A stretch of 64,000 bases of DNA from Argiope bruennichi (taxonomy: Eukaryota), in NCBI RefSeq assembly GCF_947563725.1, contig NC_079159.1, positions 100,177,559 through 100,241,558 of the forward strand, written 5' to 3'. A program made the position numbers and the translations under genes. Position 1 is the first letter of the stretch, and the number at the start of each line of letters is the position of its first letter. Of this stretch, positions 4,881-47,335 are shown piece after piece. Under the pieces are notes generated by a model. That model worked only from the letters and a program-made list of their open reading frames with translations. It made no database searches and was not told the origin of the DNA.

Positions 4881-5167
4881 GGGCTGCGGTGGCCTGGTGG
4901 TAAGGTCTTGGCTTCGAAACCGGAGTGTTTCAGGTTCGAGACCCGATTCCACCGAAGAACCGTAGAGTAAGCGGGCCTGGTGCACGCTAAATCCGTTGGG
5001 GCCAAACATCCTCCCTCTGATGAGGTGCGGAAGTTTGAAAAGAGGGTGTCAACTCGGATGTCGCCCTCGTTATCTGACCGCGATTCAGAATTACGAGGTC
5101 TGTCTCAAAATAGCCCTAGTGCTGCTTTAAAACGCGTTATTAATGTAACTAAACCAAATCTAATTAG
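4881..5167 (+). mobile_element. tRNA-derived SINE, copy 1 (same family as 20381-20661)
   Basis: About 285 bp, collinear and roughly 75-80% identical to 20381-20661. The head has tRNA-like A/B-box-like motifs (GCCTGGTGGTAAGG ... GGTTCGAGACCCGATTCCACCGAAG) but does not fold into a valid cloverleaf. The body and tail (GCTGCTTTAAAACG...TAACTAAA) are shared between the two copies. Confidence 0.7.
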
Positions 5168-8100
5168 ACGTTTTTATAATTAAAATACCTCTTCAGTTTT
5201 CTCTCCTCGATTACCTCGTATATTAACATAGTATAAAATACAGGAAACAAAATTATGCTGCGATTTTTTTTAGTCTGCTTTTATTTTATTTTTTAAATCT
5301 CTTTCTATTTGTAGTAATTATTTTAGCACATCCGAGTAAAATTTACGATGACTGCAATTATACACTCGTCATGCTGTATTTACATCGTCATTTATGTACG
5401 AAGCAAAATTTAAAAACACATTGTCAGGAGTATAGAAAAACCAATCTGAAGTGATAAGTAAACCGGATTTTCCAGAATTACACTAAAATCTGAAATATTT
5501 TGAATTCATAGATGAAGGTCACTGCATTTTGAAAGTAATCAAAATATTTCTCCTTGAATTCGCTGATGTCATGTTTCTACACATTCTTTGAAATATTATT
5601 CAAAGAAGGTATCAATATATAAAAATGTGCTCGAGATGAAATGTCTTATTTTTTATGTGAAAATAAGATTGTTGGTTAGTAAAGTAGTTCTGATGCTGTA
5701 GTAACGAAAGCATAGATCCTGGTTATCCGTTTTGGGAGTCACCGCGAAGACAAAACACAAATGCATTTAATTTGATTTTTAGTGTTCAGTTTGGTAAAAG
5801 AAGTGTAAAAATTGTACTTTGCGTACTATTTTCAGTGGCATAACATACTATTTACCACCTTCTACAGGAATTGTTGTTCCTTTGACTGGATTTATTACGG
5901 AAACAAACCTAAATGGGAAAATGATTTTTAATTACATAAAACAATAAGGTAATAAAACAGTATAAATATAAAACAATAATTCTTGAGTAAAATCCAAGTT
6001 TTTATACATAAGAAATACTATGTACAAAATTTAGTTGTTTTAAATTGATTCGTTTCTTTTTAAATATTGATCATACTATTACATAAAAAAAATGAGGAAA
6101 ATATTTACTGAATTTTATAGTTTGAAAATAAATAAATAAATCCGATATCGTTTTCAGTTTTTGAAAAAAAAAAAAAAATCTGACATCGTTTTCAGAATTA
6201 ATCTTTCAAGAAAGCATTTTTATGTGCCTTTTTTTCTGTCAAAGCAGTAGATTTTCTTTTGAGTTCCTTTCCATGTTAGTTTGGGAGACATTCTTTGATT
6301 TCAAAGTTTATAAGGTTAACCATTCAGAACTGTTCGTGATAATCATTGTTTAAAATTTTGATCTTCCTTTCCTTTGCTGAGTTTTGGAATAGACCTCAAA
6401 TTTTCAGGGGATATAACTGTAGAAGTTGATGATATATTAGACTTATATTGGTGAAATTTAAATTACAGATGAAGGTAGAAACTCATTGTCAGCAAAAAGA
6501 TTCCCACTATAGGGAATAAAGGTTAATATTGAATCCTTTCATGATTTTATTTGGTCGTGGATTTGGTAAAAATAAATACAGCCAGTTTAGTTGCATCATG
6601 TATGACAACATGTTTACCTCTGATACTTGGGATTTAGTTGCTCATTGCCTAGTTGTAATTAGTTTTGAATGAAACAAATACACCTTTATCTCTATTCGAT
6701 CTTTGGTATGGATGAAAAGGCATGATAATCACATCATTGTTTTTGACCGTCTCAGTATTAGGAATGTCACGTGAATTTTATAGTTATCAATAAATAACAA
6801 AGCCTTAGGGCTAGGTTAGATATGATTGATAAAATTCTTGAATTAAAATGTCGCATTCGATGATCCAAGTTGTCTGCAGCAGTTGCACCAAGTGGAACTT
6901 CATTTAGCATGAATAGTTTGAAGTTCTCTCAAGGGAACAAAAATAGAAGGGGATTTTATTTCAAGCACTTACTGAAACTATTATTTCTATCAATGTCCCT
7001 CTTTAAGCAGAAATCCTCAACTGATTTGGATTTTTTCTTTCAGTGCTAAAACTTAAGAAGATCTATGAACCGTAACTATCTTCATTTCATATGTCAGGAA
7101 GTTGAAATGAATGACATTGAAGATTTTTTTTTTTTAATTTAGAGAAAAATTGCAAAGACAATCTCTTTATTGAAGGTTTGTAGCTTAGTTAAGCTTGTTC
7201 CTTGTGATTTTCTTACTAAGAATTATTATTGTGCATTTTCCAAATGTCTTGTAACCACTGTTTCCCTGATCTTTTATTCGCAATTCATGATGGATCTTAC
7301 TTTTTTTTATTGGCAATGATAAATTCATAAGCTAAACGCATTGCTTTGAAATTTTTAAAACCGAAATGCATTCAGCAGCTATGATTAAATAGTCTGCTAA
7401 CGTGAGTTCCTCATCCTCAACGATTGCCTTCATTAATTAGCTGAACAATGGGGTTATTGCAAATTCAGCATACGCAATTATTTTATTTAATTTAAATCCA
7501 AGATTACAATGGACTTCTTTATTTGAAAATGCCTTGAGGCCTCGTCAATTATCCTCTTTTATTTCTGCACAAATTTAATTTCGGTGTGCATCCCCTTTTA
7601 CTAGATTTTTTTTTTCTCATTATTCCTAGTCTTGCTTCTGGACATGACAACGAATTCCTTCAATAATTCAAAGAATATCATTATTATAGACTGTAAAAAT
7701 TTTTTTGAATAAATGCAAATAAATGATTTTTGCTTTACTATAAAACCTTTTTTTGTGTTTCTCTGGTCTTATCAATTTATATTTACACATAGGTATAAAC
7801 TCTTTAGAATGAAAAAAATATGTAAATATATTCAAATCATTGGAATATTTAAAATCCACAAACTTCAAATAAATAAGAAAGATTTTTGAAATTTCTTCAG
7901 AAGCGGTAAATTTTTTATTGTAAGCAGGGTCAATTTTATGCAGGATATTTTGTACTTTGAGTAAAACTTCAGGCACATTTTAAAAGAAAAAGGTTTTTCT
8001 TTTGCCGTTTGCAAGACGATATGATACCTCAAATGATTTTACTTAATACAATTGAATAAGTTTATCAACAAAATGCTTGACCATTTTCCCCAAAAAACTT

Positions 8101-11015
8101 TACCGCAACAAACATTTCAAGCTTTAATTTGACTCAATATCTTGGTTCAACATTTCATCGTATATTCATCAGATGTGTCATGCTAAGAAAAAGTTTAACC
8201 ATATTCATATCTGTTCTTCCTCTGATAATTTTCCCATTGACGAGCGGCCCCATTCCCAATTTGATTTATTTTAGAAATATTTGGAAGGGGTTGGTCATTT
8301 CTCATGAGCTATAAAATTGTGGAATCTCCCTCCTCCAAAAAATCTAAGAAATCTTTCGCACAGTGCATCAGGGGGCATTCTCCAAAATTGCAGAAGTAAA
8401 GACTTGTTTGAGGATCTCAAATTTGCCCAATAAAGTCTGGCGTCTGGATTTCTTGGAACGGACACACTTGACGTTTATCCTCAGTGATTCTTCGACAGAT
8501 ATTACAATTCGTTCAAATGCCTCTACACTGATTACTTTCTTATTAATCATATTAACCCTTATGTTCATTTTGTATAGTATACCATACAAACTTTATAAAA
8601 ATATACTACCACTATAAAATGATTTTTAACTTAGTTTTATTAAACACATGACATTTCTAGACGTTTATTTATACTTCAAAAATAAAAATAGTAGTTTATC
8701 TGTCATAATTTTAAATCAGTTGTGAAAAATAACCGTCAACATGCGCCTCTCAGGTTTATCTAAGGTAAGTTTTATTTTATTTTTATGTTTGTACCCCTAA
8801 ATATGTATGTTTATTATAAAATACACATGCCTAAATGTTTGTTCTTACACATTTTTATATATACATACCATTTTTTTTTCTTTTCTTCAAAAAAGCAATC
8901 TTGCCACGATGAGGGTTAAAATCAGAAAATTTCAAATGTGTTATAGCCTCTCCAAGTCATATTGCTCCTCGAATTATTAAGGTACTCATAAAGTAAGCAT
9001 AGAAATTACACGACTAGAAAAGTTTTGAGATAAAGGCACAATTGTTTTATTTTTACCTGTTCCTGGTGTAACATCGCCAAATTATACTTTAAATCGAAAT
9101 GTAACAAAAATTTTAAATCTAAAAGGTATTCCGAGATGAAGTTATATATTGATTTAAATAAAACTAGTAGCTTTAACTGTAGTTTGAATGAATAGATCTT
9201 TCGAATTATTTAAATTGGTGATTAAAAACAACAAGTTGATTTTAATGTTGATTGGTGATTGTTCAACAAGTTGAGAATAATAGCGCCAATTAAAAATTGT
9301 AAACAACGTATAAAGATAAAAACGAGCAAAAAGACGATCATTCGATGCCTTCTATCTGCAATAACATGATTGTCACTTTTATTGCTTTGTTCAGGTTCCT
9401 ATAAGGGAATGAAACATTTTTTTTGTTGTTGTTTTCAAAAATTGGCGAAATTTACAGTAATTAAAACTGTTCCACTCGTACATAATTAATGACTGGACCA
9501 TAGAAGCTAGATTCATTAAAAATTAGCAACGATCAGTTTTTCATCTGATTAATTTTACAATTTATGAATTTCCTATTACACTGAAAATGTAATATTTAAG
9601 ATAGATGTCCATTTTTTTTTCGGCAGCTGCTATGGCGTATGATTTCGTTCAGTTCTCAGTACAACGAAAGTTGTGTAGTGACCGCATAATGTAAATCACA
9701 ACTTTTGATCAATAGCGTATCATGAAATTTACAGTAAGTGTTACAAATAATATAATAATTTATAATACAAAAGACAGCAGGAAAATATTAAATCCGACTG
9801 TCAAATTCAGCTCAGCCAAAACGTGGCGCCAATAAAATTCAAAATCCGACAGTGAAATTCGAACTCGATTTTTTTTCTCATATCTCCTTAACTCTCAGGT
9901 TTTTAGGACACATATCCTTTTAGTAAGTTTGTTTGAGAGTTTATAGTTAAGAGTTATTTTCGAAAATATTGAGGTTTGTAAGCATGGATTAAATTAATAG
10001 ATGTGTGTGTTTTTAAAATCACAAAATTATGCTAGGAAGTTCCATCCCTAGTGGTGAAAACATAATTTAAGAAGCTTTACTCCAACCAATTCGGAATACT
10101 TTTTTTTTTGCAACTTCTGGGGAGAAACAAAATTATTGTTACATACATAATTGTAATATTTCTATACTATATGAAGTACGATATCTAAACAGCTTGCAGA
10201 CATGAAAGATTTAATTGGACGGAATGATGCATCATTTATACTTTTTGAAGTAATTAAGATTAAAATAACTGATGGAATGGCACAGGCTTTCCACATCTCA
10301 TGCATTTCATTGTCACTGTCATTGCCGAGTGCTGTTTCAATAACTTTTTTTTATACTGACATCAAATTTAATTATACACGTAGACGAAAGAGATCTACTA
10401 CGAATGCTTGACAGCAAAAGTATTGCTTGATTTCTATTGTATAAAAGGACCCTTTTTCTGGTCTTCTCTTCAAATATTGGAGTAGAAAATGTTGTTCTTG
10501 AGTGGTATAATTTCTTTGGGTTTGTCCCTACTTCTTGCATCAGGTAAATATATCTTAATTTTCCAATGTGCATATAATATCACTACGGAAGTAGATAGTC
10601 TCCATATGAGCAAACAGTATAGCGCCAATATATATGAAAAGTTTGATTTATAATACCAGATTTCATTATATATCTGATACAATGTGAAATAGGTTTAACA
10701 TACTTTTTATTAATTATATGAGCATTCCTCCAGATTTAACACGGACATGTTTTTTGCTTACGTGCATTGCGACCTCTTTTTACGATATGAGTATGTTAAA
10801 AGAATTTGCTAAATTTCTACTACATACTCAACATTTACTGGCATGCGCAATTAAACATTTTCATATAGATGTACTGCCTCCAAATTTTTAAAATTTTTAT
10901 ACTTTAATCTAATTTATTAGCTTAATTGGACTTGATTTCTCCAATAATTATTGATTGATAATTAATTCCTATTACAGATAAATAATTATTGATATTTCAA
11001 TGGATATAAACTATA

Positions 11016-11915
11016 CAGGGTGTTCCATAAAAGTGGAATGAGCGTCTTTTCCCTTCACTATTGCAATTAAACATGTACTTTTAATAACAAAGTTTTATTA
11101 AATAAGGTAGCCACTTTTGTGAAAATATTAGACTTCCTAGCGCGGGTATAGTAAAATTAAATTTTTTATAAAGCTTCTTTACCTAAAAAGTTTGAATAAA
11201 ATGTTTTTCCTCATTTATCTATAAGAAAATAAGGTTTCATGCTTCTGTCTATAAAGTTTGCTGAGATAATTAATAGTGAAATTTATTGACTTTTTCATAC
11301 CTCTAACCAGTGCCTGAGCGAGACTTTTTCAATTTCAACATACCACAAAAGATTATTAAAAGACAGAATCAAAAAATTATAACTCCTTTACTAAATTTTA
11401 TTAAAATTAAAAAATGAGCCACCTTTGTCATCTATATAAAGTTGCATTCTTTTAAAATACTAGAGGATATCCGATTGAACTTATCATTTGTTACTTAATG
11501 ACAGGTTTTTTGAATTCGCAGTCAAATATCTACGGGGGATATACTGCTAAAACCAATTCCTCCCTTAGTTCAGGCATAATGCCAATCAAAACTAACTGAA
11601 TGTGTCGGTCACCATTCAATGTAATATTGTTCAAAATGGAACCGAACAAAAAGATTCTAAAAAAGCCACATCCCATATTTATAGAAAATATCCACCGATG
11701 ATAAACCTCCTTTTCGAAGAATTGATTTTTACTATGCCAGAAGCGGTAGTTTCAAAGATCAATGCTTCTCTATTAAATAAAGCACCATTCGTCTGTCTAA
11801 ACAGCTTTTTTCAGAAAAAAGGATTTGAGATTGTCAAAAGTGAGACCAAATTGCAAGGTTCTGGACGTGTTGTCCATGTCGCTATTGTATCAGTCCATGG
11901 AATGCATGAATACTA
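11016..11915 (+). mobile_element. 5-prime-end fragment of a Tc1/mariner-type element (same TIR family) abutting element 11918-14167
   Basis: It starts with TA followed by CAGGGTGTTCCATAAAAGTGG, the same TACAGGGTGT-type terminus as the elements at 11918 and 15184. No matching inverted end was found before 11918. The internal ORF 11602-11958 has no recognisable domain. Confidence 0.3.
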
Positions 11916-11917
11916 TA

Positions 11918-12200
11918 CAGGTGTCTCAAAAATCTTGATCGCGGCTTTTATTTCTTAAATATTGTTCAGAGACATATACTGTTGTGTAAAAATACAAGTT
12001 GTGTAAAAAAAGGTGCAAAATGTAATGAAATCGATTGAAATTTTCAGCGGATTAAACCTAAAAAAAATACAAAATTTAAATTTTTATACGGACCCCGTAT
12101 AAAATAATCCCAATAAGTAAAATGTGCCCCATCCTCTAATAAGTCATGTACAAAATTTAATAATTTTATCATGAAAACTCTCAAAGATACGTTAAAACAA
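11918..12200. repeat. Left long TIR of the mariner-like element
   Basis: Inverted match to 13855-14167, read directly from the sequence. Confidence 0.7.
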
Positions 12201-12616
12201 TGTTGGTGGAGGGTCAATCACAAATTAAAATGCAAATGTTTACATCTTCAGCGCAGATGAAGCGACGCAGGAATGCCTCATAAGGAAATAAAAATATGCT
12301 TCATATCTTTAGTTTTAAATATAAATTTTAAAATCTATGCTTCCTGAAAAATACTTTAAAATTTTGTATCATGAATTAAAGAATATAACTTAAAAATAGC
12401 AAAGTCAATGAACTTGTAAAAAAACTTAGAAATGTTTGCATATGCAAATATATGCCTCTAATTGGTGGGTCCCATAATCTCAACAGACGCATCATTATAT
12501 TATGTTATTTCTGCTCTGTCATTGATCAATCGCATAGCTTACGTAAGGATAACTCGCACATCAATATTTCGCACTTCTGCTACATTTTGAGAATGCAATT
12601 AGCCTGTACAAACATT

Positions 12617-13477
12617 ATGTCACAATACAGCAATGAAGAACTTTTTGATATCCTAGTGCTTTACAGTTTATGCAATCGCAATGCTAGCGAAACTGCAAGG
12701 AAATTTCGGCGTAAATATCAATTCCCGACATCCTTCTGGGATCCTTATTTCCAGATTAGTACAACGAATGTGTGAAGCGTACATCCTGTAGGTGAACCTG
12801 GTAGGCGCATACTTCACTCAACTGATGAAGAAATTAATATTTTGGCTTACTTTTGCTGTCATCCACATAGTAGTGTTCGTATTGCTGCTTCAGAAATGAA
12901 CCTATCAAGAGCAGCAGTGTGGAGAATACTGAGACGGAATAGGTGGCATCCCTTTAGCATTCATGGTGTGCAGGAACAGGAGCCAACAGATTTTCTACGT
13001 CATCTAGAATTTTGTAATTAGGCTCTTAATCAAGAAGATGCTAATCCCTCTTTCTTGAAAAACATAATTTGGACAGTCGAATTCTGTTTTAAACAAGATG
13101 AATGCAAAAATCCTCAAAATGAACACTTTTGGTCACTTTTTTTTTTTGCTATTTATCATCAGAGGCATTTTTCTATGAATACATGGTGAGGTATTTCCAA
13201 AAACCGCTTTCATGGACCCATACTGTATGGTACGTTGACGGGAGACAGATATGTGAATGCGATTCTGAATGTGGTTATTCCTGATTTTACGCAGGAATTT
13301 CCTCTAACAGTGCTTCCACGTGTTTGATTCCAACATGATGGATCTCCAGCTCACCATGCTATAGTTGTGAAACACTGGTTAAATAACGAGTTTCCAGATA
13401 AGTGGATTGGCTTGCATGGTCCAATAGAATTTCCAACTAGATCGCATGATTTAACGCTTATGAATTTTCTTTCTTTC

Positions 13478-13509
<32 letters not shown>

Positions 13510-13688
13510 GGTGGAGTCGTTTAAGTACAACGGTTTATTTGTCACCTCCCTTAAATAAAACAGAATTGCAATAACGCATTTTAGAGGGTTGTCGTGACAT
13601 CACCGAACAAGAACTTGACAGAAGTATCATCAGACGAATGCATCTCTGTATTGGCATCGAAGGAAAACAATTTGAACAAGTTATGTAA
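12617..13688 (+). pseudogene. Tc1/mariner (maT-like, DDE_3) transposase pseudogene with frameshifts and stop codons
   Basis: The N-terminus is MSQYSNEELFDILVLYSLCNRNASETARKFRRKYQF (HTH of DUF4817 type).
Shifted frames then give GRRILHSTDEEINILAYFCCHPHSSVRIAASEMNLSRAAVWRILRRNRWHPFSIHGVQEQEPTDFLRHLEFCN (second HTH), then NIIWTVEFCFKQDECKNPQNEHFWS (the FSDE..F.L.G..N.QN.R.W block).
Next come YVNAILNVVIPDF...FQHDGSPAHHAIVVKHWLNNEFPDKWIGLHGPIEFPTRSHDLTLMNF (the FQQDGAPAH...GPIEWPARSPDL block), and a C-terminal ITEQELDRSIIRRMHLCIGIEGKQFEQVM followed by a stop.
Several frame changes are needed to read through. Confidence 0.75.
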
Positions 13689-13854
13689 TCTTTTCTTTAA
13701 GTTATTATTTTTACAAATTTTTAATACTTTTGAACCAATAAATAGCAAAATTATTATTTATTTATTCACTCATTACTTTCTTTATTAATTTGTGTACGAC
13801 CCCTAAAACACGAATATCCGACATGATTTTTCTCCTTTGCGAAATCTTATCCAG

Positions 13855-14167
13855 GCATCCAAAAGTGGTTTAAGTCAGCATTTATGTAGTTTCATATCTT
13901 TGAAAAATTTTGCGATAAAATGCTGAAATTTTATACATGACCTTATTAGAGGATGGGGCATATTTTACACACTGGACACTTTTTTGTACGGTATCCGTAT
14001 AAAAATTTAAATTTCGTATTTTTTTAAGTTTAATCCCTTGAAAATTTTATTCAATTTCATAACATTTTGCACCTTTTTTTTACGCAACTTGTAATTTGCA
14101 GTATACGTATGTCTATGATCAATATTTAACGAATAAAAGCCGCGGTCAAGGTTTTTGAGACACCCTG
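13855..14167. repeat. Right long TIR of the mariner-like element
   Basis: Reverse complement of 11918-12200, ending ...GAGACACCCTG followed by TA. Confidence 0.7.
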
Positions 14168-15183
14168 TATATATGCCAGTTATTAAGTAGAAATGTTCTC
14201 TATACTATCGATTTAGGAATGTTGAGTTCTGGACTTAGCATGATGGTAATTTGAAAAATAAGCCGAAACGTCAATTTCTACATCACATGCATAACATTAC
14301 AGCATCTTCCTCCTGTCCTCCTCTCCATTACTTTCCATGAAATTGAAGATCTTGCAGTTTTTAATTACTAAACAATTCTATTAATACACATCCTAGGAAG
14401 ATGCCGAGAATTCGGAAAACGATGTTTGTATTCTTCTATAACTAAGCCAGCATTATGATTACATAAGCATAAATCGCGTCATATACAATATTCCTTGTTT
14501 CTAAAATTCTTTTAGAAAGCGCACAAGTGCAAACAAAAAATTTGTTTTTCTTGTTCGACATTTTATATCATCTCGTAATATCTTTTGCTGTAATGTATTA
14601 TCTTGATAAGATATCTTGATTGTTCACCTTCTCAAGTCTCTCTTCTCTTTCATTAACCAATTAAAATGCTTGATTAGTATGATTAGAAATTATTTTGCTG
14701 ATTACTAAATTTTTTGAAGTCATGATGACTGGATGATGTATAATATTCGACAAATATTTACATATGACAAATTTTCTGTATTGAATAAGTGTACATTTCT
14801 GAAGAAAAAGCTTTCAGTTAAATTTGTGATTGAATTTTAAATAAGTATACCTCTGAAAATTTTGTTGATAAGAATGTGAAACTTTGAGTGTATATTGAAG
14901 AATGTAAAAGAAAAATTTTACTAACAGACACTTTTATATTATGGGGTACATAAAAAATTAATTAAAAAATTTTTTAATATCAACCTTTACAGTGTTTTTA
15001 TACAATTGCCTACTTTTATATAAAGAAATTTTGTTATTGGAAATATTTGTCTAGGTGCTATATTTTGGATAATAAAGGCTTGTTCCAATTTTTGGGGACT
15101 CAATGTATAATTTTAATAAAAAACAATGAACTTTCTCTAAATTACCACCCATATTTATCTCTTAAACAGGTATAATAAATATA

Positions 15184-15727
15184 CAGGGTGTCCCAAAAAA
15201 ATTTATACACATTTTAGCAGCTGATAACTAAGTTATTTCTTCTTTCTTTACTGACTGAACCCATTGAACCGAGTGATGGCAGACAGACTTGAATTTGAAG
15301 AAAGGAAATTTATTCTAAAATGCTACTGGAAGTATGAAAATGCAGTAGAAGTGCAAAGACAATTTAAGAGGGAGTTTAACAAAGAACCACCTACACGAGT
15401 TACTATCACTCGAATTAGAGCTAAGTTTGAAGCTGATGGAACTGTTCAGGACGTCCATAAACCTGCAACAGTTGTTCAATTGAGGGCAACCATTGAACAT
15501 GAATGTACGAATATCCCAAGGGAATTGTTCCATCATGTGTGCTATTCCATCGCTTCGCGTTGTCAGCAGTGTCTGGAGCAGAGCGGACATCAGTTTGAGA
15601 ACATGCGATAACAAGACAATAGAATGATATTTGTAGAATCTTTTACATGCTGAAAATTATTCGAATTATAATAAACCCCAAATTTACAATTATTTAAAGT
15701 GTGTATACTTTTTTTTGGGACACCCTG
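15184..15727 (+). mobile_element. MITE-like internal-deletion derivative of the same maT-like family (perfect 28-bp TIRs, TA TSD)
   Basis: The 5-prime TIR is ACAGGGTGTCCCAAAAAAATTTATACAC (15184-). The 3-prime end is GTGTATACTTTTTTTTGGGACACCCTGT (to 15727), which is its reverse complement with one extra A. TA is at 15182-15183 and at 15728-15729. The 544-bp element carries one 115-aa ORF. Confidence 0.85.
15264..15611 (+). CDS. Truncated transposase ORF: N-terminal DUF4817-type HTH fused in frame to the transposase C-terminal tail (DDE core deleted)
   Basis: MNRVMADRLEFEERKFILKCYWKYENAVEVQRQFKREFNKEPPTRVTITRIRAKFEADGTV... matches the HTH of the 12617 pseudogene. ...NIPRELFHHVCYSIASRCQQCLEQSGHQFENMR matches its C-terminal ITEQEL...CIGIEGKQFEQVM tail. 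Confidence 0.6.
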   Translation: MNRVMADRLEFEERKFILKCYWKYENAVEVQRQFKREFNKEPPTRVTITRIRAKFEADGTVQDVHKPATVVQLRATIEHECTNIPRELFHHVCYSIASRCQQCLEQSGHQFENMR

Positions 15728-16540
15728 TATATATATTTATTCATTTACTTTTGACAACAAAATCCTTTTTCGACTTTTTAATGCTTTATCTTAGGAAAGT
15801 AATAAATCCATTTCTTTATAGGCATATTAACAGAATATTTACTTTGTATTTGTTAACAGCTGATGTAGTTGTTACAGTGTTAAACTATTAGACAATACAG
15901 CCTCAATCTCGAGGAATTCGTCACTCTGTCCTTTACTCTTCTATTGAAAATGTTTGCCTGTCTTATAATAAACGTTTTCAGTAAAATAAATTTATTACTA
16001 ATGAAGGAAAACAAAAGATCCCAAATTTAGCCTTTTAATGATATGAAGAAGATTTTCTTTCCCTTAAAATCCTCATTTCGAAAGTTTATTTTCAGATCTT
16101 TTCTTACATAATGTAAAAGCCGAGTGTATTATATTTTTGTGCGAATTCTTCGATTGAAATTCCCATCAGCAACTCGTATTTTGCGTTAAAAGAAGAAATG
16201 TTGAAATGTATCTACTTCTAAGCATCGTTTTTTTTTTTTTGAGTGAGAGAGAGAGAGAGCTGAATATGCTGTGGAAAAATTATAAAATAGATTCTTTTTT
16301 TAGCTCAACAAACGCGGTGTCCCTCGAATGAAGTATGGTCGTATCCTGTCGATGGCTGCAATACATGCTTACCAGAACCGTTTTGTGAAACAAGACAAGA
16401 ATTTGGCTGTAACTGCAGAAGCGGATACACAAGAGAGATCTTCACTGGATTCTGCATTTCGAGAGCTCTTTGTCCACGTAAGTAGTTTATCATTAGTTTG
16501 CCATAACCAGAGCTCTAAAAAAAAGTTATTAACTATCTCT

Positions 16541-16938
16541 TTATGTAATCTCTGGCCATTTTGGATTACATGTGAACGTGATAAATAAACATGGTCGTCC
16601 ATATTCGCGCACGAAAGTCAGAGCATCCTGTATATATTCTTGCATATGACGTGGACTGCCTACGTACGATGATGGTAAAATGACATGGTTACCAATTTCG
16701 GCGACGTCGGCGTTGTTGTTGGTAGCGTCTCGCAAATGAATGTACTCTTCCGCGCGCAGCTTTTGTTGATTATATCGTAAGTATCGTAGTCGTTCGCTCT
16801 CAATCTTCGCGTACATGTCGACCATGAATTGTTGACAAAGCTCACGACATCGTAAAATGACGTTGTCCAGGCCACGTCTAATCATTAATCGGTACGCATA
16901 ATAATCCTTTGAGCTAACGTTCTTGTTTGTTTCAGCTC
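16541..16938 (-). CDS. Helitron Rep protein, exon 2 (Helitron_like_N core ending FITFTCNPKWPEIT)
   Basis: See the exon 1 and intron evidence. A stop follows PEIT. Downstream sequence (16305-16493, another frame) is degenerate. Confidence 0.6.
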
Positions 16939-17039
16939 CTGTAATATTTGTTCATAAAAATTAATTTAAATTTATTACGTTCAATAATTTAATTGTTTTG
17001 TTAAATGATTAATGATCAAATTAATAATGAATGAAGTAC
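16939..17039 (-). other. Predicted 101-bp intron in the Helitron Rep gene
   Basis: On the minus strand the donor is ATCAG|GTACTTCATTC and the acceptor is ...TTTTTATGAACAAATATTACAG|GAGCTG.
Splicing joins ...RDPVS-G-AETNKNVSSKDYYAYRLMIRRGLDNVIL... in frame.
This restores a continuous Helitron_like_N domain across ORFs 16981-18189 and 16541-16885. Confidence 0.5.
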
Positions 17040-18189
17040 CTGATACGGGATCTCGTTGTTTTATGTTTATGCAATATCCGTCTTGTCCTTTCCAGAATAT
17101 TAGCGGATATTGGAGAGCGTCATATGAACGATGTGTGTCAGCAATGAACTGAAGATTATTATTTCTTCTACGAATCAGAATTTCTCGTGCAGCTGTACAA
17201 TCGCCAACCATGATTCCAGCAACATCATCAACAACGGGTGCATTGAATCTACGAATATGCTCTCCAGCTGGTGTTTTATCAGGATTAATGACGATAGCGT
17301 GATTATCGCTTTGTAATTGGTGCATATGTGATTTGAATATTTTCAACAACTCGTTGTGCTCGTTCAAAAGAGCATCTAGCTCGCTGACGATGCGCCTGGC
17401 ATAAAGTGAATCAAGGTTATTATAATCACAACGTGCATTCACGCGATTGGCAAGTGCGCTTCCGGAATCCTCGCCGCCCATAAAGTAGATTTGTAAGAAT
17501 TTATGTGGTTCGTTTGGCATTGGCAGCAGTGAGCCCATTTTATGATAAACTTGGCTTCTGATTTTGAATGTAGAATTGAATTGTTGACCATTTGCATTAG
17601 TATTTCGAACTATTTCTGTTGCTCCGAACGATGTCATTTGAAAGCATGAATTGAATCTTCGAATTGACTTCAGGAACACGTTAGAATCTGGATCCGTGCC
17701 GATAAGTAAGCCGTTCAATGGTTCAGGTGGTGTTTCAATTTCAGGTAGTTGCACTTTTCCTGACGCGCAACACATCCCAGCTGGCTCATTTTTGAATTTC
17801 AGAGCATGACAATGCGGACATTCCTTGTCCATAGCACCAATTACCACTTTTGAATGAGCATAATATTCAATATCGGGCTCATACTGGAATGCTAGACGCA
17901 GGAATGAATCAGATATAAATGCTCGATGTACCTGCTGTCGTTGTTGGTCATTTGTTCTTCGTCTATTGACTGTGAAACGGCGTGATTGTCGTTGTTCTAA
18001 TCTTCTGCCTTCATTGCGTTCAGCTCGTGTATCTTCTGGCTCTTCTTGATGCAATTGCGCCATTCTGACACGTGCATCAGTATTTTGTTGCTGGATTTGT
18101 TCTTCTGTTCTTTCGGATCTGCTATTTCGCAAGTTTCGAGCTTTACTTGTACTGCGGCTCAAATCAGCCCCTTTGCGTTTTCTTGGCAT
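17040..18189 (-). CDS. Helitron Rep protein, exon 1 (N-terminal zinc-finger-like region and start of the Rep domain)
   Basis: A 402-aa ORF starts with Met at 18189. A predicted splice donor, DPVS then G|GTACTT, lies at 17040/17039 on the minus strand. Confidence 0.65.
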
Positions 18190-19439
18190 TGCTCACTGTA
18201 AAAATTGAAACTATGAAAATCTTAATTGTTCAATTACATTTTTTTAATAAAATTAAATTAAAATTACATTTTTATAAGATCAACAACATTTTCGATATAA
18301 ATAAAAAAAAGTATACTTACAACACAAAATCCGTTGTTATTGGAAGCTCGTGTCACGTGTTGAGTACTTTTGAGGTTATAAAATCACTTGATTAACTAAT
18401 CGTGCAAAATACACTCAAAATTGATAATTTAATTATTATTGATAAAATAGGAATGATTAAAAGTTAATATGAGAGTTACACTGAGATAGCAAAATAATAA
18501 TTGTCAACGTTACTACTACACTTGATGCATAAACAATAATGATGGCCGACAACTGTGTAGGGAGTGAGAAAGAAAGGAGACCGGCTTCGTTCTCATCCCT
18601 ACTCCGTGCTGTTTACTGGGTCAGAAGTGACACCTGTAGACATCTGGCGGGGATAACTAATTAAATGACGATTGATCAGTTTTCGACCGGAGAGGAAAAA
18701 TGATTAAATTACTAAAATGGCTATTAAAAAATAAGGGCTGATCGTAGAAGGGGGAAAATTGAGGATTGTATGTATTTTTGTATGTTGTATCATAAAAAAA
18801 TAGAAATTAAAAATTTTGTCTAAAAAAAAATAAAAAAAAATTAGGGGTGGACTACCCCTAACATTTAGGGGGATGAAAAATAGATGTTGGCCGATTCTCA
18901 TAGATACCGGATAAGCACAAAAAATTTCATCAAAATCGGTCAAGCCGTTTCGGAGGAGTATGGCAACGAAAACTGTGACACGAGAATTTTATATATTAGA
19001 TTGATTCTTCCAGCCATTCGATTCCAAAATTACATAGCATTATCTCTCGCGTCTTCCAGAATAGATGCTACTTTGATATTTTGGAAGAAGTTCTCATTCC
19101 GCTTTGAAATTGCCATTGAGCATGCAATTCATTGAAACTTCCACGTGCAACATTTTCAAAGCATCCAACATCTGAAAAGTATTGAAGAAATGCAAACATA
19201 TAGTTTGAGATGATTTTAGAATGGAGTACAAAAAATCACTCGACGTTTTTGATAGATCATTGTAAGATTTGTGTGGAAACATAAGGCATTTAGCTTAATA
19301 TTGTACTGCATTATATTGCTATAAACATTAATATTACTTGCAGGAAATTTCAGGCAAAAAATTGCCTCTAATTCCTCATCGACACCAACGGACGAAATAA
19401 ATGTTTGCCTGAAATATTCTCCTGGATGGCGACACATAA

Positions 19440-20240
19440 AGATATTAAAATTACCAGCTACAAAACGATAGATCAGCTGAGTTATTCTTACATCAATTGC
19501 TGGAAATTAGGAACGGAAAGGCGTTGGTTGATCCAATCTCAGGAATGATTTCATTGTTTCATAACTTCTGCAATTCGGAGACGTCAAAGGAAATATTAGT
19601 TGAAAAAGCATTTTCCAATATACAAAGCAGTTATAAGAAACAGGATTGGCTGAATGAATGAGCTATTCTTGCGACCAAGGAGAAAGACATCTACAAACTG
19701 AACAATATTATTTAGTCTAACTTTCAAAATGAGACAGTCACCTACAAGTCCGTCGACACTGTTATGGGAGCAGATGAAGTAGTTCATTAACCAACAAGTG
19801 TTTTGAATTCCCTCGATCTGCCAGGGAGGCTGCCGCACATGCTACAATTGAAAATCGGCGTGCAAATTATCATGTTACGAAATATCTATAAAGCAAAGCT
19901 TTGCAAAACCACACGGTTTGTCGTAGAAATGATGATGAGCAATATAGTAGAAACAATAATTTTGACAGGACCTTGCAAAAGTGAAGTTCTCCTCGCATTC
20001 CTATGATTCTAACAAATATGCCATTTCAGTTTACGAGATCGCAATTTTCTTTCGATTGGAGTTTGTAATTGACATTAACAAAACTCAGGGCCAATCTTTA
20101 AAATTGTGCGGTTTATATATGCTTTTCATATACACAATTCCAGATTTCCATGTTCTTAAGTCGGGTAACCAGACAATCTCAAAATTTGCAAAGACAATGG
20201 GACAACAAAAATATAGTATACTCATAAGCATTGTAAAATA
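19440..20240 (+). pseudogene. Pif1-like (Helitron-type) helicase C-terminal fragment, pseudogenised, plus strand
   Basis: Shifted plus-strand frames give LLEIRNGKALVDPISG (for LL.IGNG....I.IP), DWLNE*AILATKEKDIYKLNNII (for WL..RAILAPKN..VD.IN..IL) and VTYKSVDTV (for Y.S.DS).
They also give LDLPGRLPHMLQLKIGVQIIMLRNIYKAKLCKTTRFVV (for ...P..L.LKVG.PIMLLRNL....GLCNGTRL.V), IPRIPMIPSDMPFQFTRSQF (for IPRI.L.PSD...PF.F.R.QFP) and VIDINKTQGQSL (for AMTINKSQGQTL).
The fragment is interrupted by stops and frameshifts. Confidence 0.75.
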
Positions 20241-20380
20241 AAACATATTAGAAATATGCACTTTATCTTTTCTTTCTTTTCCATTTAGCCAACCTGAGAC
20301 AAAACAACACATGACCGGGTACAGCTAGGGTTCATTAAATTTTTAACTGTGTTTCAAATACATGCATTTATGTGTTCATC

Positions 20381-20661
20381 TGAGGCCACGGTGACCTGAT
20401 GGTAAGGTCTCGCCTTCGGAACTGGAGGGTGTCAGGTTCGAGACCCAATTCCACCGAAGAACCGTCGTGTAAGTGGGTCTGGTGCACGCTAAATCGTCCG
20501 GGCCAAATGTCCTCCCGCTGGTGTGGTGTGGAGAGAGGGGGTGCTGGCTCAGGTGTCGTCCTCGTCATCTGACCGGGGTTCAAATGTACGAGCTCCGTCC
20601 CCAAATAGCCCCCGTGTTGCTGTAAAACGAGACGTGAATATAACTAAAGTAAACTAAACTT
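20381..20661 (+). mobile_element. tRNA-derived SINE, copy 2 (same family as 4881-5167)
   Basis: Collinear with copy 1: GGTGACCTGATGGTAAGGTCTCGCCTTCGGAACTGGAGGGTGTCAGGTTCGAGACCCAATTCCACCGAAGAACCGT ... GTTGCTGTAAAACGAGACGTGAATATAACTAAAGTAAACTAAAC. It was inserted immediately downstream of the helicase pseudogene. Confidence 0.7.
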
Positions 20662-21370: not shown

Positions 21371-22683
21371 AGCACTGAGATCAAAACTAAAAGAATATGA
21401 ATAGATAATTTTCAAATGGAAAAAACTGAATAATTTTAATAGTGAAACAGATAATAATGGCAAACTAGGATATTTTTTATCAATCTTTAAGACATTGAAA
21501 AAATAAAAAACGTTATCATTTCATCTCAGAAAACTTATGAAATAATACTGAAAATTTACCATTTCAAATTAAGGCTTTCAATCCCAACAGAAATATTGTC
21601 CTTCAACCAATTTAATTTGTTGGCAATAAGTCTTTTAAATAAATGAAACAAAGAGAGACCAAATAATATATAGAAAGATCACCAGAATCCAAAAATTTCT
21701 TTTTCACATAATCTTAAAAATAGGGAGGGGGACAGAATTTTTATCATTTCAAATAAATATGTTATGCACTTATTCAGAATGCTGAAAACATTCACAATAA
21801 TTTTATTTATTTTAAAATATTTTCTTCCACTGTTATATTTAATAAGAGTTATTTTTTAAATTTAATTCACAATTGAGAAAAGAAATGATATTGGAGATTG
21901 TTAGTTATTGATTTATTTGTCAATAAATTTCTGTAAGCACATAGAAAAAAAAATTTCTTCTGGAATGAAAATAACAATAATTTTTTCGATCACTTTCTTC
22001 TGAAAAACGATTTTTTTAACATAAAGATTTCTTTCCTTATAATGTATCCGACTCTCTGACTGGGTTTTCATGATTTCCGATATTCAACTTTATAATAAAG
22101 TAGTCAAAATACCAATTAATTTAAAACGCAAATATCATTTAAACGCACATAAAAATCTGAGGAGTCATTTGCATTCTTGTGCGCTTGGAAACAATAAATG
22201 CCACAATAAAATGCGGTGTTTAGTTAAAAAAAATATTAAAAATAAATTCAGAAGATAATAAATAATAAGGTGAATGATGGTAGAAAACTTTTATATTCCT
22301 CTCATATATGTAGTTGGCATTTTAAAGGATATTTATAATTTCTTTAGTATTTATTAAAGACTTTACTAAATTTATCTTTATTTGGTATTTACTAAGGGTT
22401 TTATTTTAACAAAGTTCTTCCAGAATTTCTTTTTTTTTTCTTATATAGGTTATTTTTTATATCAATAGAAATATTTATTTTATTTTACTGAATGCTTCTA
22501 AATTAGACTTACAAGTTATTACAGTATGCAGAAAACAAAAGGCGAGTTATATTCTCTAAAGGGAGCATAAAGTAATTACAGCTGGTTAAATAATGTGTGA
22601 TTAAAATGAAATAAATCTACAAATGCTGAATGCAAAATAGTTTGAATTGTTGCGCAAATAGTTTTATTAAACATAATAACAAG

Positions 22684-22817
<134 letters not shown>

Positions 22818-22945
22818 GCAATTAAACAGTATTCCAAATTTCAGAAATTATCAGTGATGCACTCTTGGCTTTGTTATCCAATGACTACTCTCCCTTTTCG
22901 AGGAATTCCGTTCATCACAAAATCATTTTTCTAACGTTTAATTTG

Positions 22946-23167
22946 CTACTTCATTAAAGCATCCTCCTTTGTATCTGTGTCAAAATATTCTTTGGGATCG
23001 ATGCACTTTTCATCAAGTCCCCTGACGAGTCCCTCTTCGCACACGCAACCTGGAACACAAATCCGGGTGCAAGGCAAAGGTTTCATCCAATTGGTGCAGT
23101 TTTTCTGATAGTGCGCTCGCTCTACAGGGGTCGAAACGTTCTTTGGGTGGACATCCCGCTTGATCAA
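22946..23167 (-). CDS. TIL-domain (trypsin-inhibitor-like cysteine-rich) exon, paralog 1, probably degenerate
   Basis: The translation is LIKRDVHPKNVSTPVERAHYQKNCTNWMKPLPCTRICVPGCVCEEGLVRGLDEKCIDPKEY.... It has the TIL signature ...C-x3-C-x3-C-x-C-x3-[FL]VR-x5-C-[IV]. Aligned to paralog 2, the C1, C2 and C3 positions are H, R and Y. The exon is preceded on the minus strand by a poly-T tract followed by CAG (acceptor-like) at 23168-23190. The M in the ORF track is really a TTG codon. Confidence 0.55.
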   Translation of the reverse strand: MIKRDVHPKNVSTPVERAHYQKNCTNWMKPLPCTRICVPGCVCEEGLVRGLDEKCIDPKEYFDTDTKEDALMK

Positions 23168-24408: not shown

Positions 24409-24687
24409 TTAAAATTTGTTTTTCTCGGTACCTCGAATGTTTTGTAGATGGAGATGAATGAACTCGCTATTGGATAGACCTGTTCCCGAAGATCTTTTTA
24501 ATGAATATTTTTGCGGCGAAATGCAGTTGTTTTCGGGTCCTCTGACCTTCCCTTTTCTACAGACACAACCGAAGACGCAGATTTTTGAGCATAGCATGAC
24601 AGTATCTTTGTAATTGGAGCAATTTCTTAGACAGTGAGCATGGCATTCGCTCATCTCTTCACCGGCCGGGCAATCTGTATTCGCTGT
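24409..24687 (-). CDS. TIL-domain exon, paralog 2 (most complete N-terminal half)
   Basis: The translation is TANTDCPAGEEMSECHAHCLRNCSNYKDTVMLCSKICVFGCVCRKGKVRGPENNCISPQKY.... The cysteine spacing C-x8-C-x3-C-x3-C-x9-C-x3-C-x3-C-x-C-x11-C-I fits the TIL fold for C1-C9. The tenth cysteine is absent. An acceptor-like CTCTTTATTTCGAG|ACA lies on the minus strand at 24688-24700. The ORF is also open up to a Met at 24816, so a single-exon reading cannot be excluded. Confidence 0.6.
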   Translation of the reverse strand, partial: TANTDCPAGEEMSECHAHCLRNCSNYKDTVMLCSKICVFGCVCRKGKVRGPENNCISPQKYSLKRSSGTGLSNSEFIHLHLQNIRGTEKNKF

Positions 24688-25210
24688 CTCGAAATAAAGA
24701 GCGAATGTTAATATATTTGTATCCATTAAATTTTTTTCTGCAATGCAGCATGCAATGTTTAATGATATAATGCGTATTGTGCAAAATAATGATTTGATGT
24801 TGAACGTAGTGTTCAACGATGAAATTACACATCATATCTGATCATGACAAATTTGAGATGCATTTTGTTTCAATTTGCTGATTGAATAATTAAAAAATAA
24901 TAATTTTGCTGGATTAGGTTTCGACATCAAGTTGACTAGAGAGTTTAAGTCTACAATTAACGCTGGGGAAAATGGATAGATAATTGAAAATAGTTGAAAA
25001 AAATATGCTAATTTTATGATTTATAAATGATATACATTATTGCAATAAGGTACAATGAGGTATTAAATCTGTTGATGCACGAAATAGATAATAACTTTAT
25101 AATCATCTTCTATTCTTATTCATTAAAATATTAGTTATAATTATTTTTAATAAAATATTTGTTCCTAATTGCAAAACCCTTTATCTGCAATATAATATTT
25201 AAAATTTCCA

Positions 25211-45800: not shown

Positions 45801-46724
45801 TCACTGTGATGATGGGGTATAACACACTACACTGATTTTCTTATTTAAATGATTGATTGAAATATCGCTTGCTAAAACTAAATTTAATTTATTAAAATAT
45901 TATTTTTTATTCTTATGTTTCGGAGTTCCCGAATTATCTTTTTCTTGTTTTGCAATCAAATGAGAAACATCTACATTGAATTTGCTTACTCTTCATCGAA
46001 AAGGGCTTATAACTTATATTCGCTTTTTTCTGTCATGGTATATATGCTGGGTATTCAGTATAATTTTAGGCCGTGAGCTGAATTTCCATTTAGATTCGAA
46101 CAGTGAATTAAGATATGGCATTTTTATAAAGTTACATTTAGGACTATTCGTTTTTCCTTCCCTTTTCATCTGCTTTAAATCCTATTTCGAGTTTTTGCCT
46201 CGTTTCATTCAAAAACACTCATAAACTTGATAATAGCTTGATAAATTTGTTTAAATGTTGAGCGATTTCTAAAAAAGGACCATTTTTCTTTGTTTGAGCC
46301 CTCGAATTCTGGAAAACATTTCAGCTATTCGCGAGTTATAGCTTCCATTGCAAGAGTTTTTCCAGTACTTGATCTTAAAAATAATTTGAGACTTAAAAAT
46401 TTAAATTTAAATATTCTGTTACGTGTAAAGAGAAGATAGAAATAACATCATATTAATGCAATCGGGTTATCCATGGCTGTAATTGAGATTCCAGATAAAG
46501 GCTGTTAAAGAAAATCCAAAATGAATTTGTTAAAAAAAACAGATCAATAATAATGAATTGGTTCGATCTTAAAAAAATCTTACGTTTTCTTCTCTTTGTT
46601 TCCTTTTCCTTGATCTACATAAGATGATCAGAAATCTCGTTAGGTAAAAAGAGGATTTACTGACACTACTTCCTTTAAAAATTATTTTATAGTTTCTTAA
46701 TATGTATTATTTTATTTATAATAT

Positions 46725-47335
46725 TGTTACGAATCTGTGATGCGACTTCCCAGCATAGTGGGTTCCATAGGAGCTCCCGGAGCTTTGCGACGTAGCGCCA
46801 AAATAGATTATACCCGAAACATCGAGAATTTTCCCGATCCGTCCAGTAGGAACCGAGTTACGCCTCGAACGTTCCTGATTGGTTGAGAGGTTTCTAGCCC
46901 CGCCTCCTGAGACCTATAAAAGGAGCTGCAGCTGCCGGGGAGTGGTGGTGAATTGAGTAGTCGGAAGCGACAGAGAAGAGGATCGTCGGTGAATTGAGTC
47001 GTAGACCGGAGGAGTCGTCGTCGTCGGAACCGACGGTAAAGAACTGGCCTTCCAGAGCAAGCGGAGCAGCGACGGAGTAAAGCTAGTGATGAACTAAGCT
47101 GTGTGCTACTGTCTGCAGTAGAGTCTGTTGTATGCTGCTGTGTATGCTGTTGTATGCTGCACGTCTCGGCTGAAGATAATCGTCTTCTGTGCTGTATGTA
47201 GTTGTCGTCTTTGTACTGTCCTGTGTGTCTTCGTGTAAATAAACGTCGTGGTTTTATTTTCTACTGCCGCCTGGTGATTGAGCGTTCTTCACACCATATA
47301 ACCCCCACTATCCAAACGAAAATTTCGTAACTATA
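46725..47335 (+). mobile_element. Putative solo LTR of an LTR retrotransposon (U3-R-U5 organisation)
   Basis: A roughly 600-bp GC-richer island sits in AT-rich DNA and begins TGTTACGAATCTGTGATGCG.... It carries a CCAAT box (GATTGG, 46877-46883), a TATA box TATAAAAG (46915-46922), and an AATAAA polyadenylation signal (47238-47243) followed by a GT/T-rich tract (GTCGTGGTTTTATTTTC). It ends ...TTTCGTAAC, partly inverse to the 5-prime TGTTACGAA. There is no PBS and no internal gag/pol, so it is most likely solo. The boundaries are uncertain by about 10 bp. Confidence 0.45.

Follow-up and report, generated by a model that had tools for sequence, protein, structure and literature searches.

The minus-strand and plus-strand Helitron pieces described here are very probably a nested pair of dead fragments without present function, in which a Hel2 element would have inserted into an old helicase and a deletion would then have followed. 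The locus lies within a 64-kb stretch of DNA (the window). A Rep relic on the minus strand and a Pif1-like helicase relic on the plus strand had been reported in the original prediction; Pfam confirms the existence of both (2e-32 and 2e-9, respectively), whereas the coordinates had to be revised. Sequence comparison supports the assignment of the minus piece (family A) and the plus piece (family B) to separate Helitron families that differ greatly in age, because the former is about 98.6% identical in DNA to a complete copy from Trichonephila clavipes (L001), whereas the latter shows 36-43% protein identity to family A. The alignment of the fragments to family references, which had been proposed as a check, gave the outcome that had been named in advance as refuting the prediction, namely different Helitron families.

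The minus-strand piece (positions 16544..19000) is a 3'-truncated copy of an autonomous Hel2-family Helitron, comprising the 5' 2.46 kb of an element of about 5.95 kb. Its 5' terminus, the host A at 19001 followed by TCTAATATATAAAATTCTCGTGTCACAGTT (18971..19000), is the same end as in the T. clavipes and Drosophila ananassae (L002) copies and conforms to the canonical Helitron 5' end, A(19001)|TC(19000-18999). The conserved 5' core CTCCTCCGAAACGGCTTGACCGAT at 18958 occurs only once in the window. A non-coding leader of 811 bp (18190..19000, minus strand) shows 95.5% identity to positions 8934-9726 of the T. clavipes copy by blastn. RepHel exon 1 (17040..18189), which encodes the N-terminal domain in 383 codons plus 1 nt, is intact as judged from the ORF list, its relatives and in-silico splicing, and the partial exon 2 (16544..16938) gives the Pfam match to Helitron_like_N (2e-32, minus-strand ORF 16541-16885), spanning profile positions 12-128 of 191. 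The intron between them (16939..17039) is AT-rich, 101 nt long and in phase 1, with GT..AG borders and stops in all frames, and contiguous blastn alignments indicate that it is also present in the T. clavipes and D. ananassae copies. Its removal in silico yields 515 aa, which align without gaps to residues 1-515 of P0160. The Rep half had been described as open, with 402 aa plus 133 aa; the openness is confirmed, but the two frames are two exons separated by the intron (17039-16939), giving 515 aa when spliced. The 402-aa ORF (16981-18189, minus strand) has hundreds of Helitron homologues, and relatives of exon 1 are found in many arthropods at 87-99% amino acid identity.

No stop or frameshift was found across the 1.55 kb of coding sequence, and the 515-aa frame exceeds every other ORF in the window by a wide margin. 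Comparison by blastn with the T. clavipes copy, with low-complexity filtering on because of the (TA)n microsatellite, revealed 98.6% identity over 16543-18204 and 95.5% over 18207-19001, and the Rep side is 98-99% identical at the protein level. The corresponding values for the D. ananassae copy are 97.8% over 16832-18193 and 98.4% over 18870-18998. The undamaged 515-aa frame is explained by the youth of the Hel2 remnant.

At the other end, the truncation point reads '...FITFTCNPKWPEIT', and the identity to the T. clavipes copy ceases after ...GAGAT(T/C)ACAT. The family A content of the window therefore corresponds to residues 1-515 of a RepHel of about 1,500 aa and ends past the first Rep motif. 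The window copy lacks the HUH motif, the catalytic tyrosines, the helicase and the 3' end, making the label 'Rep' generous for a piece that holds the N-terminal domain and the first Rep motif. Permissive tblastn of 15700-16560 returned only noise (best E-values about 0.3-1), with no RepHel resemblance in 15700-16543. The Rep relic had been placed at 16305-18189; its homology ends at 16544, and the element runs on as leader to the 5' terminus at 19000. A blastn comparison with the T. clavipes copy detected no further family A DNA elsewhere in the 64-kb window, and the family A 3' end, sought as GTCTGCCGGGTAAGCTAG with up to 3 mismatches and as CCGGGTANNCTAG, has no match in the window. Viral contigs scanned with the N-terminal ORF in search of a bracovirus copy contained no relatives. 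Having neither the catalytic motifs nor a 3' end, the Hel2 remnant is, judged by its sequence, predicted to be unable either to transpose by itself or to be moved in the way of an ordinary non-autonomous element.

The plus-strand piece (19001..20328) is a 5'-truncated, decayed relic of the other family, with 75.7% DNA identity to positions 8364-9693 of a termite locus (L003), the non-coding 3' end included. Its helicase part begins 4 aa past Walker A and extends to the C-terminus; the 3' UTR and the terminus follow. The 3' terminus CCGGGTACAGCTAG (20315..20328, plus strand) is common to the termite copy and closes with CTAG at 20325-20328, right after which the flanks of the two copies diverge. 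The common terminus and the diverging flanks argue that the 3' end of family B is genuine; against this, the base following CTAG is G in the window, where the termite has the canonical T. The hairpin region in front of it (-2.5 kcal/mol, z = 0.02) folds no better than shuffled sequence. The suggested inspection of termini recovered the 5' TC in family A and the CTAG in family B. The helicase fragment had been started at 19440, whereas the relic begins at 19001 and extends past the ORF to the CTAG at 20328. The gap of 1.25 kb that had been left unexplained between the two pieces is fully accounted for, mostly by the family A leader and for the rest by family B helicase. The central helicase motifs had been reported as missing; motifs Ia, II ('IV*DDF') and III ('AGNFRQ') are present, and Walker A alone is missing.

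Pfam assigns Pif1_2B to the relic (2e-9, plus strand), and its only PDB match at E <= 0.01 is the Helraiser transposase (E = 5e-28), with no cellular Pif1 passing this threshold. Its protein identity is 60% to P0121 and P0262, 43% to P0160 of family A and 40% to Hel_c35; at the DNA level it does not align with the T. clavipes copy, to whose helicase it shows 36% protein identity. The earlier description of this half as riddled with stops holds: there are 18 in-frame stops in the single-frame HSP and, in our own reading, at least 10 on the best path, with at least 6 frame changes. The 5' end of family B is absent from the window, and no further family B protein signal was found across the whole window. 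The 5' core motif of Hel1 and Hel2 is absent from the termite family B locus, so that family B is not placed in Hel1/Hel2. In P0262 and P0258, both close relatives, a single protein contains Helitron_like_N as well as PIF1 domains, and bats also have family B relatives.

The two pieces meet at 19000/19001. On the minus strand the junction reads host ...GAATCAA|TCTAATATATAAAATTCTCG, and the same terminus stands behind unrelated flanks in both T. clavipes, with (TA)n|TCTATATAT..., and D. ananassae, with ...ACAA|TCTAATAT.... Across the junction, the old helicase picks up again precisely at 'LILPAIR...', corresponding to 'GKTFLIR|LILAAIR' in P0121, and the counterpart in the termite locus is ...CTAATTAGA|CTGATTCTG. 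The site is an A|T located four codons after Walker A of the old helicase. Such an arrangement, in which the intact 5' end of family A directly adjoins the old helicase at A|T, is characteristic of a nested insertion, and the sequence on both sides suggests that 19000/19001 is a genuine transposition junction. The six junction bases ATTAGA fit the Hel2 terminus and the family B sequence alike, and a microhomology-mediated join would be formally possible. Against such a join, the D. ananassae copy has TCTAAT... as its natural Hel2 terminus. To the left of the Hel2 piece, from 16543 downwards, the sequence does not continue family B; therefore, the nested history needs an extra, unobserved deletion.

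Based on these comparisons, we propose a history of three steps. First, a family B Helitron would have integrated in plus orientation so that its 3' end came to lie at 20328; decay would have followed. An autonomous Hel2 Helitron would subsequently have entered the A|T site within the old helicase ORF in the opposite orientation by rolling-circle transposition, four codons after Walker A, leaving its 5' TC at 19000. A later deletion or rearrangement with a breakpoint at 16543/16544 might then have taken the terminal ~3.2 kb of the Hel2 element, which would have held the HUH and Tyr motifs, the helicase, the 3' hairpin and the CTAG, along with all family B sequence that lay upstream of the insertion.

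A SINE-like repeat (~20385..20660, plus strand) with a tRNA-like head starts about 57 bp downstream of the family B terminus. A second copy in the window at 4887-5163 is 78% identical over about 275 bp and has unrelated flanks. Inspection of the sequence shows the B-box-like GGTTCGAGACC, and ARAGORN and Rfam call no tRNA in the repeat. A SINE inserted right after the helicase fragment had been predicted; the repeated element is indeed downstream, but some 57 bp further on and not recognised as a tRNA by either program. The host genome is AT-rich and arthropod-like, with TIL-domain exons.

An assembly artefact could underlie the left junction (16543/16544) or even the entire juxtaposition, since both elements are multi-copy repeats of the kind that assemblers mis-join. 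We regard this as very unlikely, because 19000/19001 has the exact structure of a real Helitron insertion, and the sequence left of 16543 is unique and recurs nowhere else in the window. A shade less probable is that the Hel2 copy was shortened during transposition at a cryptic 3' signal, which would make 16544 its original end and not a deletion breakpoint. The read-through/cryptic-termination model does let cryptic sequences serve as termination signals (PMC6544945). However, the end reads ...GAGATTACAT|A, with neither CTRR nor a following T, and the left flank should then continue the family B helicase (...GGTGKT...ATTAGA), which it does not. The 515-aa frame might also have been kept because its product, the N-terminal protein of a truncated RepHel, is made and has a use, such as the regulation of Helitron activity. 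The frame is the longest in the window by far, and the tandem deletion derivatives in D. ananassae retain just this ORF, annotated as a gene. Against this, youth alone explains the intactness at about 1.4% divergence from the T. clavipes copy, and dN/dS is about 1.1 versus the D. ananassae copies and 0.5 versus the T. clavipes copy, the latter from 17 changes only; these substitutions look neutral, and we give a useful protein less credence than premature termination.

More improbable still is a single RepHel element in which an inversion and a deletion split Rep from helicase, as the original prediction had offered. Both halves are Helitron-derived, roughly complementary and on opposite strands about 0.8-1.25 kb apart. 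However, Rep is 98-99% identical to the T. clavipes protein, against 36% for the helicase, which has no DNA alignment to it; the helicase is of the other family (75.7% DNA identity to the termite locus, 60% amino acid identity to P0121); and the Rep side has a canonical 5' terminus of its own exactly at the junction. The family and age data thus refute this origin. The other scenario offered, two independent truncated insertions, was right as to different families and ages, whereas the pieces did not simply land side by side, the junction being that of a nested insertion. Least probable of all is that a cellular PIF1 gene, reduced to a pseudogene fragment, gave rise to the plus-strand helicase, an origin that had been named as grounds for rejecting the Helitron interpretation. 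The Pfam match is to the generic Pif1 2B domain, and many relatives are automatically named 'ATP-dependent DNA helicase PIF1-like'. Nevertheless, Helraiser (5e-28) is the sole structure matched, the relatives P0262 and P0258 combine Helitron_like_N with PIF1, and the DNA identity to the termite locus runs through non-coding sequence to the common CTAG terminus; the Helraiser match and this terminus exclude a cellular origin. The nested insertion followed by a deletion is therefore preferred.

The locus is ordinary transposon debris, a textbook nested-transposon relic. It matters little biologically, and its use lies mainly in correct repeat annotation, with two elements, two families and three breakpoints. 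The T. clavipes reference is a complete 5.95-kb copy that encodes, collinearly and on the same strand, the N-terminal part, Helitron_like_N and PIF1, and the RepHel P0160 is one protein of 1,504 aa; Rep and helicase are thus collinear at the family level, and the window has parts alone. The 3' end of the T. clavipes copy is ...GCCGGGTCAGCTAG|T. Hairpins at the 3' end were read from the sequence as GGCAAA-acaacg-TTTGCC in T. clavipes and GGCAG-tgcgaagt-CTGCC in D. ananassae. The latter species has tandem arrays of deletion derivatives that keep the N-terminal ORF, where it is annotated as a gene.

The window copy shows about 98% nucleotide identity to the T. clavipes and D. ananassae copies, intron and synonymous sites included. 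Proteins at 87-99% identity occur in other orb-weavers, a scorpion, wasps, aphids, moths, butterflies, tephritid flies, beetles and a sawfly. From these identities, we consider it an evenly balanced proposition that Hel2 has recently and widely been transferred horizontally, the window copy being one footprint of an arachnid-insect network. The near-identity between spiders and flies adds to the well-documented rampant horizontal transfer of Helitrons among arthropods, and such transfer, if true, would be an extension of known work and not a surprise. No description of a Hel2 transfer network comparable to that of Hel_c35 was found in the literature.

In the standard Helitron scheme, family membership requires at least 80% identity over the terminal 30 bp. 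The 5' 30 bp of the Hel2 exemplar Ptep_Hel2Ca are 90% identical to the window copy and 93% to the T. clavipes copy in its Fig. S5 version, and 87% and 90%, respectively, in the machine-read sequence file. The 3' 30 bp of the T. clavipes copy (TGGCAAAACAACGTTTGCCGGGTCAGCTAG) are 100% identical to those of Ptep_Hel2Ca, and those of a D. ananassae deletion derivative 77%; in addition, a 2.7-kb internal alignment shows 83.9% identity to the T. clavipes copy. The exemplar and family A have the conserved 5' core ...ACTCCTCCGAAACGGCTTGACCGATTTTGATGAAATTTT in common. On these terminal comparisons, family A can be assigned to Hel2, by the window copy for the 5' end and via the T. clavipes copy for the 3' end. 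Ptep_Hel2Ca is itself internally deleted and has lost the N-terminal region that is kept in the window copy. Hel2 has been reported from Parasteatoda tepidariorum only (Han et al. 2019, Mob DNA 10:25, PMC6544945), and near-identical family A copies were found here in nephilid and araneid spiders, a scorpion and several insect orders.

Hel1, including Ncla_Hel1Aa of Nephila clavipes, was defined in the same study (Han et al. 2019, PMC6544945). It has the same 5' layout, TCT-(TA)n ... CTCCTCC-AAACGGCT-GACCGATTTTGATGAAA, and related 3' ends (...GGGT-C/A-AGCTAG). Its 5' 30 bp are 70-77% identical to family A, and its 3' 30 bp 60-77% to the ends of A and B, except for Cvic_Hel1Ca, whose 3' end is 93% identical to that of the T. 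clavipes copy and 77% to that of family B. Hel_c35, an autonomous Helitron of animals with a length of ~5.3 kb, comes from Cotesia vestalis bracovirus segment c35; for it Heringer & Kuhn (2017 and 2022) use a criterion of >80% nucleotide identity (HQ009558.1) (PMC5714489, PMC9389653). It shares the RepHel architecture and the horizontal spread among insects and spiders, with Cotesia among its hosts. Its RepHel (P0276, CvBV_c35) is 54% identical to family A Rep plus Hel, 51% to the 515 aa of the window and 40% to the family B relic. The identity of family A with Hel_c35 was rejected on the protein-level comparison, the CvBV_c35 RepHel being merely 54% identical. Helraiser/Helibat (PDB 7LCC), the reconstructed bat transposase, matches the family B relic at residues 1080-1441. 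Helraiser is of a distant family and a functional reconstruction, whereas the family B relic is 5'-truncated and stop-filled; the match indicates that the relic carries a Helitron-type Pif1-like helicase domain.

Database searches confirmed two Helitron relics, a Rep piece on the minus strand and a helicase piece on the plus strand, both far beyond chance (Pfam E = 2e-32 and 2e-9, respectively). However, the boundaries in the original prediction were off, as the minus-strand element (family A, 16544-19000) reaches 19000 and the helicase relic (family B, 19001-20328) starts at 19001. The 1.25 kb between the two pieces, previously unexplained, is fully filled, with the family-A leader at 18190-19000 and N-terminal helicase sequence of family B at 19001-19440.

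No ORF in the 64 kb is longer than the one that encodes 402 residues in family A (16981-18189 on the minus strand). It is followed by a 114-aa ORF (16541-16885, minus) that matches Helitron_like_N at an E value of 2e-32 over profile positions 12-128 of 191. The Rep half had been described as open in pieces of 402 and 133 residues; the frame is indeed intact, but the pieces are two exons around a 101-nt AT-rich GT..AG segment (17039-16939, minus). In-silico splicing yields a product of 515 residues, which aligns without gaps to residues 1-515 of P0160, a 1,504-residue family-A RepHel protein. The same phase-1 intron of the RepHel gene (16939-17039, minus) is also found in the Trichonephila clavipes and Drosophila ananassae copies, whereas P0160, a related full-length RepHel on a 5.4-kb contig, reads through without it. 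A protein search with the 402-aa ORF returned relatives in the hundreds, those of 87-99% identity coming from the spiders Trichonephila, Nephila, Argiope and Caerostris, a scorpion, Drosophila ananassae, Cotesia glomerata, aphids, moths, butterflies, tephritid flies and beetles. A sawfly is also among the hosts of such proteins, as are wasps and Lepidoptera.

The T. clavipes copy carries the N-terminal part, Rep and the Pif1 helicase, all collinear, in a full element of 5,951 bp (8935-14885 of that locus). Comparison by blastn revealed 98.6% DNA identity with the window over 16543-18204 and 95.5% over 18207-19001, both on the minus strand, and no DNA match in the 64 kb outside the 16543-19001 region. 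About 260 bp of the T. clavipes leader (9727-9985) are absent from the window copy at 18204-18207, reflecting either an insertion in the former or a deletion in the latter. The D. ananassae copies match the window at 97.8% identity over 16832-18193 and at 98.4% over 18870-18998. In the D. ananassae locus (7431-14497 of that locus, on JACRYV020000002.1), units of a Hel2-type deletion derivative are repeated in tandem, head to tail, with a period of 2,081 bp. The sequence at the internal junctions is ...GCCGGGTAAGCTAG-TT-TAATATATAAAATTC, and the 5' TC is accordingly missing from all units but the first; every unit retains the N-terminal ORF of about 400 residues, annotated as gene LOC26515330.

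Family A extends past the ATG at 18189 through an 811-bp leader up to 19000, where the minus-strand junction with the host is ...GAATCAA|TCTAATATATAAAATTCTCGTGTCAC. The same 5' terminus is embedded in unrelated flanks in T. clavipes, (TA)n|TCTATATATATAAAATTC..., and in D. ananassae, ...ACAA|TCTAATATAAAATTC... Position 19000 is a canonical Helitron 5' end, with TC behind a host A, judged by the family hallmarks summarized in PMC6544945. At the other side the frame ends in ...FITFTCNPKWPEIT, directly beyond which identity to the T. clavipes copy is lost, and a permissive search of 15700-16543 found no Rep-like sequence. Therefore, this copy carries neither HUH nor the catalytic tyrosines, and both the helicase and the 3' end are missing. 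No family-A 3' end turned up in a terminus search of the 64 kb, and the copy is short by about 3.2 kb compared with the T. clavipes element. Comparing the young ORF with the D. ananassae copies gives a dN/dS of ~1.1, and comparing it with T. clavipes gives 0.5, a value derived from 17 changes only. This pattern is compatible with neutrality, and therefore the intact reading frame reflects youth rather than function.

The family-B relic was delimited by reading the three plus frames and by tblastn with the T. clavipes helicase and closer relatives. It starts at 19001 with 'LILPAIRFQNYIALSLASSRIDATLI', four residues past the Walker A motif 'GGTGKT', and its helicase parts run up to about 20240. 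The central helicase motifs, reported missing, are present: motif II ('IV*DDF') and motif III ('AGNFRQ') are followed by the 2B domain (Pif1 2B match in the plus-strand ORF 19803-20006, E = 2e-9) and the C-terminal motifs. The relic is heavily decayed: the longest single-frame HSP contains 18 in-frame stops, the best path as read by eye has 10 or more, and the frame changes at least six times. Searched against solved structures, its stitched translation gave a single match, Helraiser, a Helitron transposase (E = 5e-28); no cellular Pif1 was hit. Its nearest database relatives (56-63% identity) are not the ones retrieved with the Rep piece, and full RepHel proteins that carry Helitron_like_N are among them. 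In addition, 18995-20328 shows 75.7% DNA identity with an element of the termite Cryptotermes secundus. The alignment spans the non-coding 3' region and ends at a common ...CCGGGTACAGCTAG, beyond which the flanks differ; family B therefore has its genuine 3' end at 20328. Folding revealed no significant hairpin before this end in the decayed window copy, and the base following it is G, not T.

The original prediction left open whether two independent insertions or an inversion within one element had produced the arrangement. An inversion is contradicted by the sequences, as the two pieces belong to different Helitron families: the relic is 60% identical to its family-B relative P0121, compared with 43% to P0160, 36% to the T. 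clavipes helicase and 40% to Hel_c35, while intact helicases of the two families share 66%. Independent insertion was right and can be stated more sharply. At 19000/19001 the young element has its 5' terminus, and the same boundary falls inside the old helicase ORF, the corresponding termite site being ...CTAATTAGA|CTGATTCTG; a junction of this kind is what one Helitron inserting into another at an A|T dinucleotide would leave. The complete T. clavipes copy sits in a (TA)n tract (flanks 8887-8934 and 14886-14961), which agrees with A|T being the target. At the junction (18995-19003), the hexamer ATTAGA fits both the reverse-complemented Hel2 5' terminus and family-B helicase codons (CTAATTAGACTG in the termite), an overlap that may be chance or may hint at target preference or microhomology. 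We treat it as coincidence rather than as evidence of such a join, because the D. ananassae copy starts TCTAAT... independently.

We propose that a young Hel2 copy inserted into an A|T dinucleotide within the helicase of an older Helitron of another family. No family-B continuation was found to the left of this young copy, and therefore one further deletion or rearrangement is needed, which would have taken the 3' 3.2 kb of the young element together with the upstream half of family B. Premature termination during transposition could also leave a truncated Hel2 copy, but it is unlikely, since the end is without CTRR and a following T, and its far side is without family-B sequence. Nesting followed by truncation is very probably the history of this locus.

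The surrounding DNA has a eukaryotic character and is rich in AT (~30% GC), with a local GC rise to 39% at 46000-48000 that contains no long ORF, and a long (TA)n microsatellite at ~22660-22820. A repeat does lie behind the helicase, as predicted, but it is SINE-like only and starts ~57 bp past the family-B terminus. It spans ~275 bp (about 20385-20660) and has a second copy at 4887-5163 (78% identical). The heads of these repeats look tRNA-like with a B-box-like GGTTCGAGACC, and neither ARAGORN nor Rfam called a tRNA or known RNA in them. A miniature mariner/Tc1-like element at 15174-15737 is bounded by terminal inverted repeats of 38 bp that match at 92%. It contains a 115-aa ORF in which what remains of a transposase C-terminus appears to be joined to a DUF4817 helix-turn-helix domain (5e-16). 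Minus-strand ORFs at 22946-23167 and 24409-24816 encode trypsin-inhibitor-like (TIL) cysteine-rich domains (6e-8 and 6e-10) and probably represent host exons, from a single gene or several.

Hel_c35, a bracovirus-borne Helitron reported from numerous insects and from two spider species (PMC5714489, PMC9389653), was rejected as family A, its CvBV_c35 RepHel being just 54% identical. Ptep_Hel2Ca, an element of the spider Parasteatoda tepidariorum that serves as the defining exemplar of Hel2 (sequence supplement of Han et al. 2019, PMC6544945), shares 90% of its 5' 30 bp with the window copy and 93% with T. clavipes, 100% of its 3' 30 bp with T. clavipes, and 83.9% over the internal 2.7 kb with the latter, notwithstanding machine-reading errors in the PDF. 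Therefore, family A is Hel2. Hel2 was described from one spider species only (PMC6544945), and our literature search found no published account of its horizontal transfer. The ~98% nucleotide identity of the window copy to copies in an orb-weaver and a fruit fly, together with the high protein identity in many arthropods, suggests that Hel2 may quite possibly have moved horizontally among arthropods in recent times. The locus itself is ordinary transposon archaeology of a known family, with this hint as a mildly interesting by-product. The 3' end of family B is related to that of Hel2 (80% over 30 bp); family B is kept as a separate, unnamed family because the termite copy is without the conserved 5' core of Hel1/Hel2 and the family-B protein is only 56-66% identical to that of family A.
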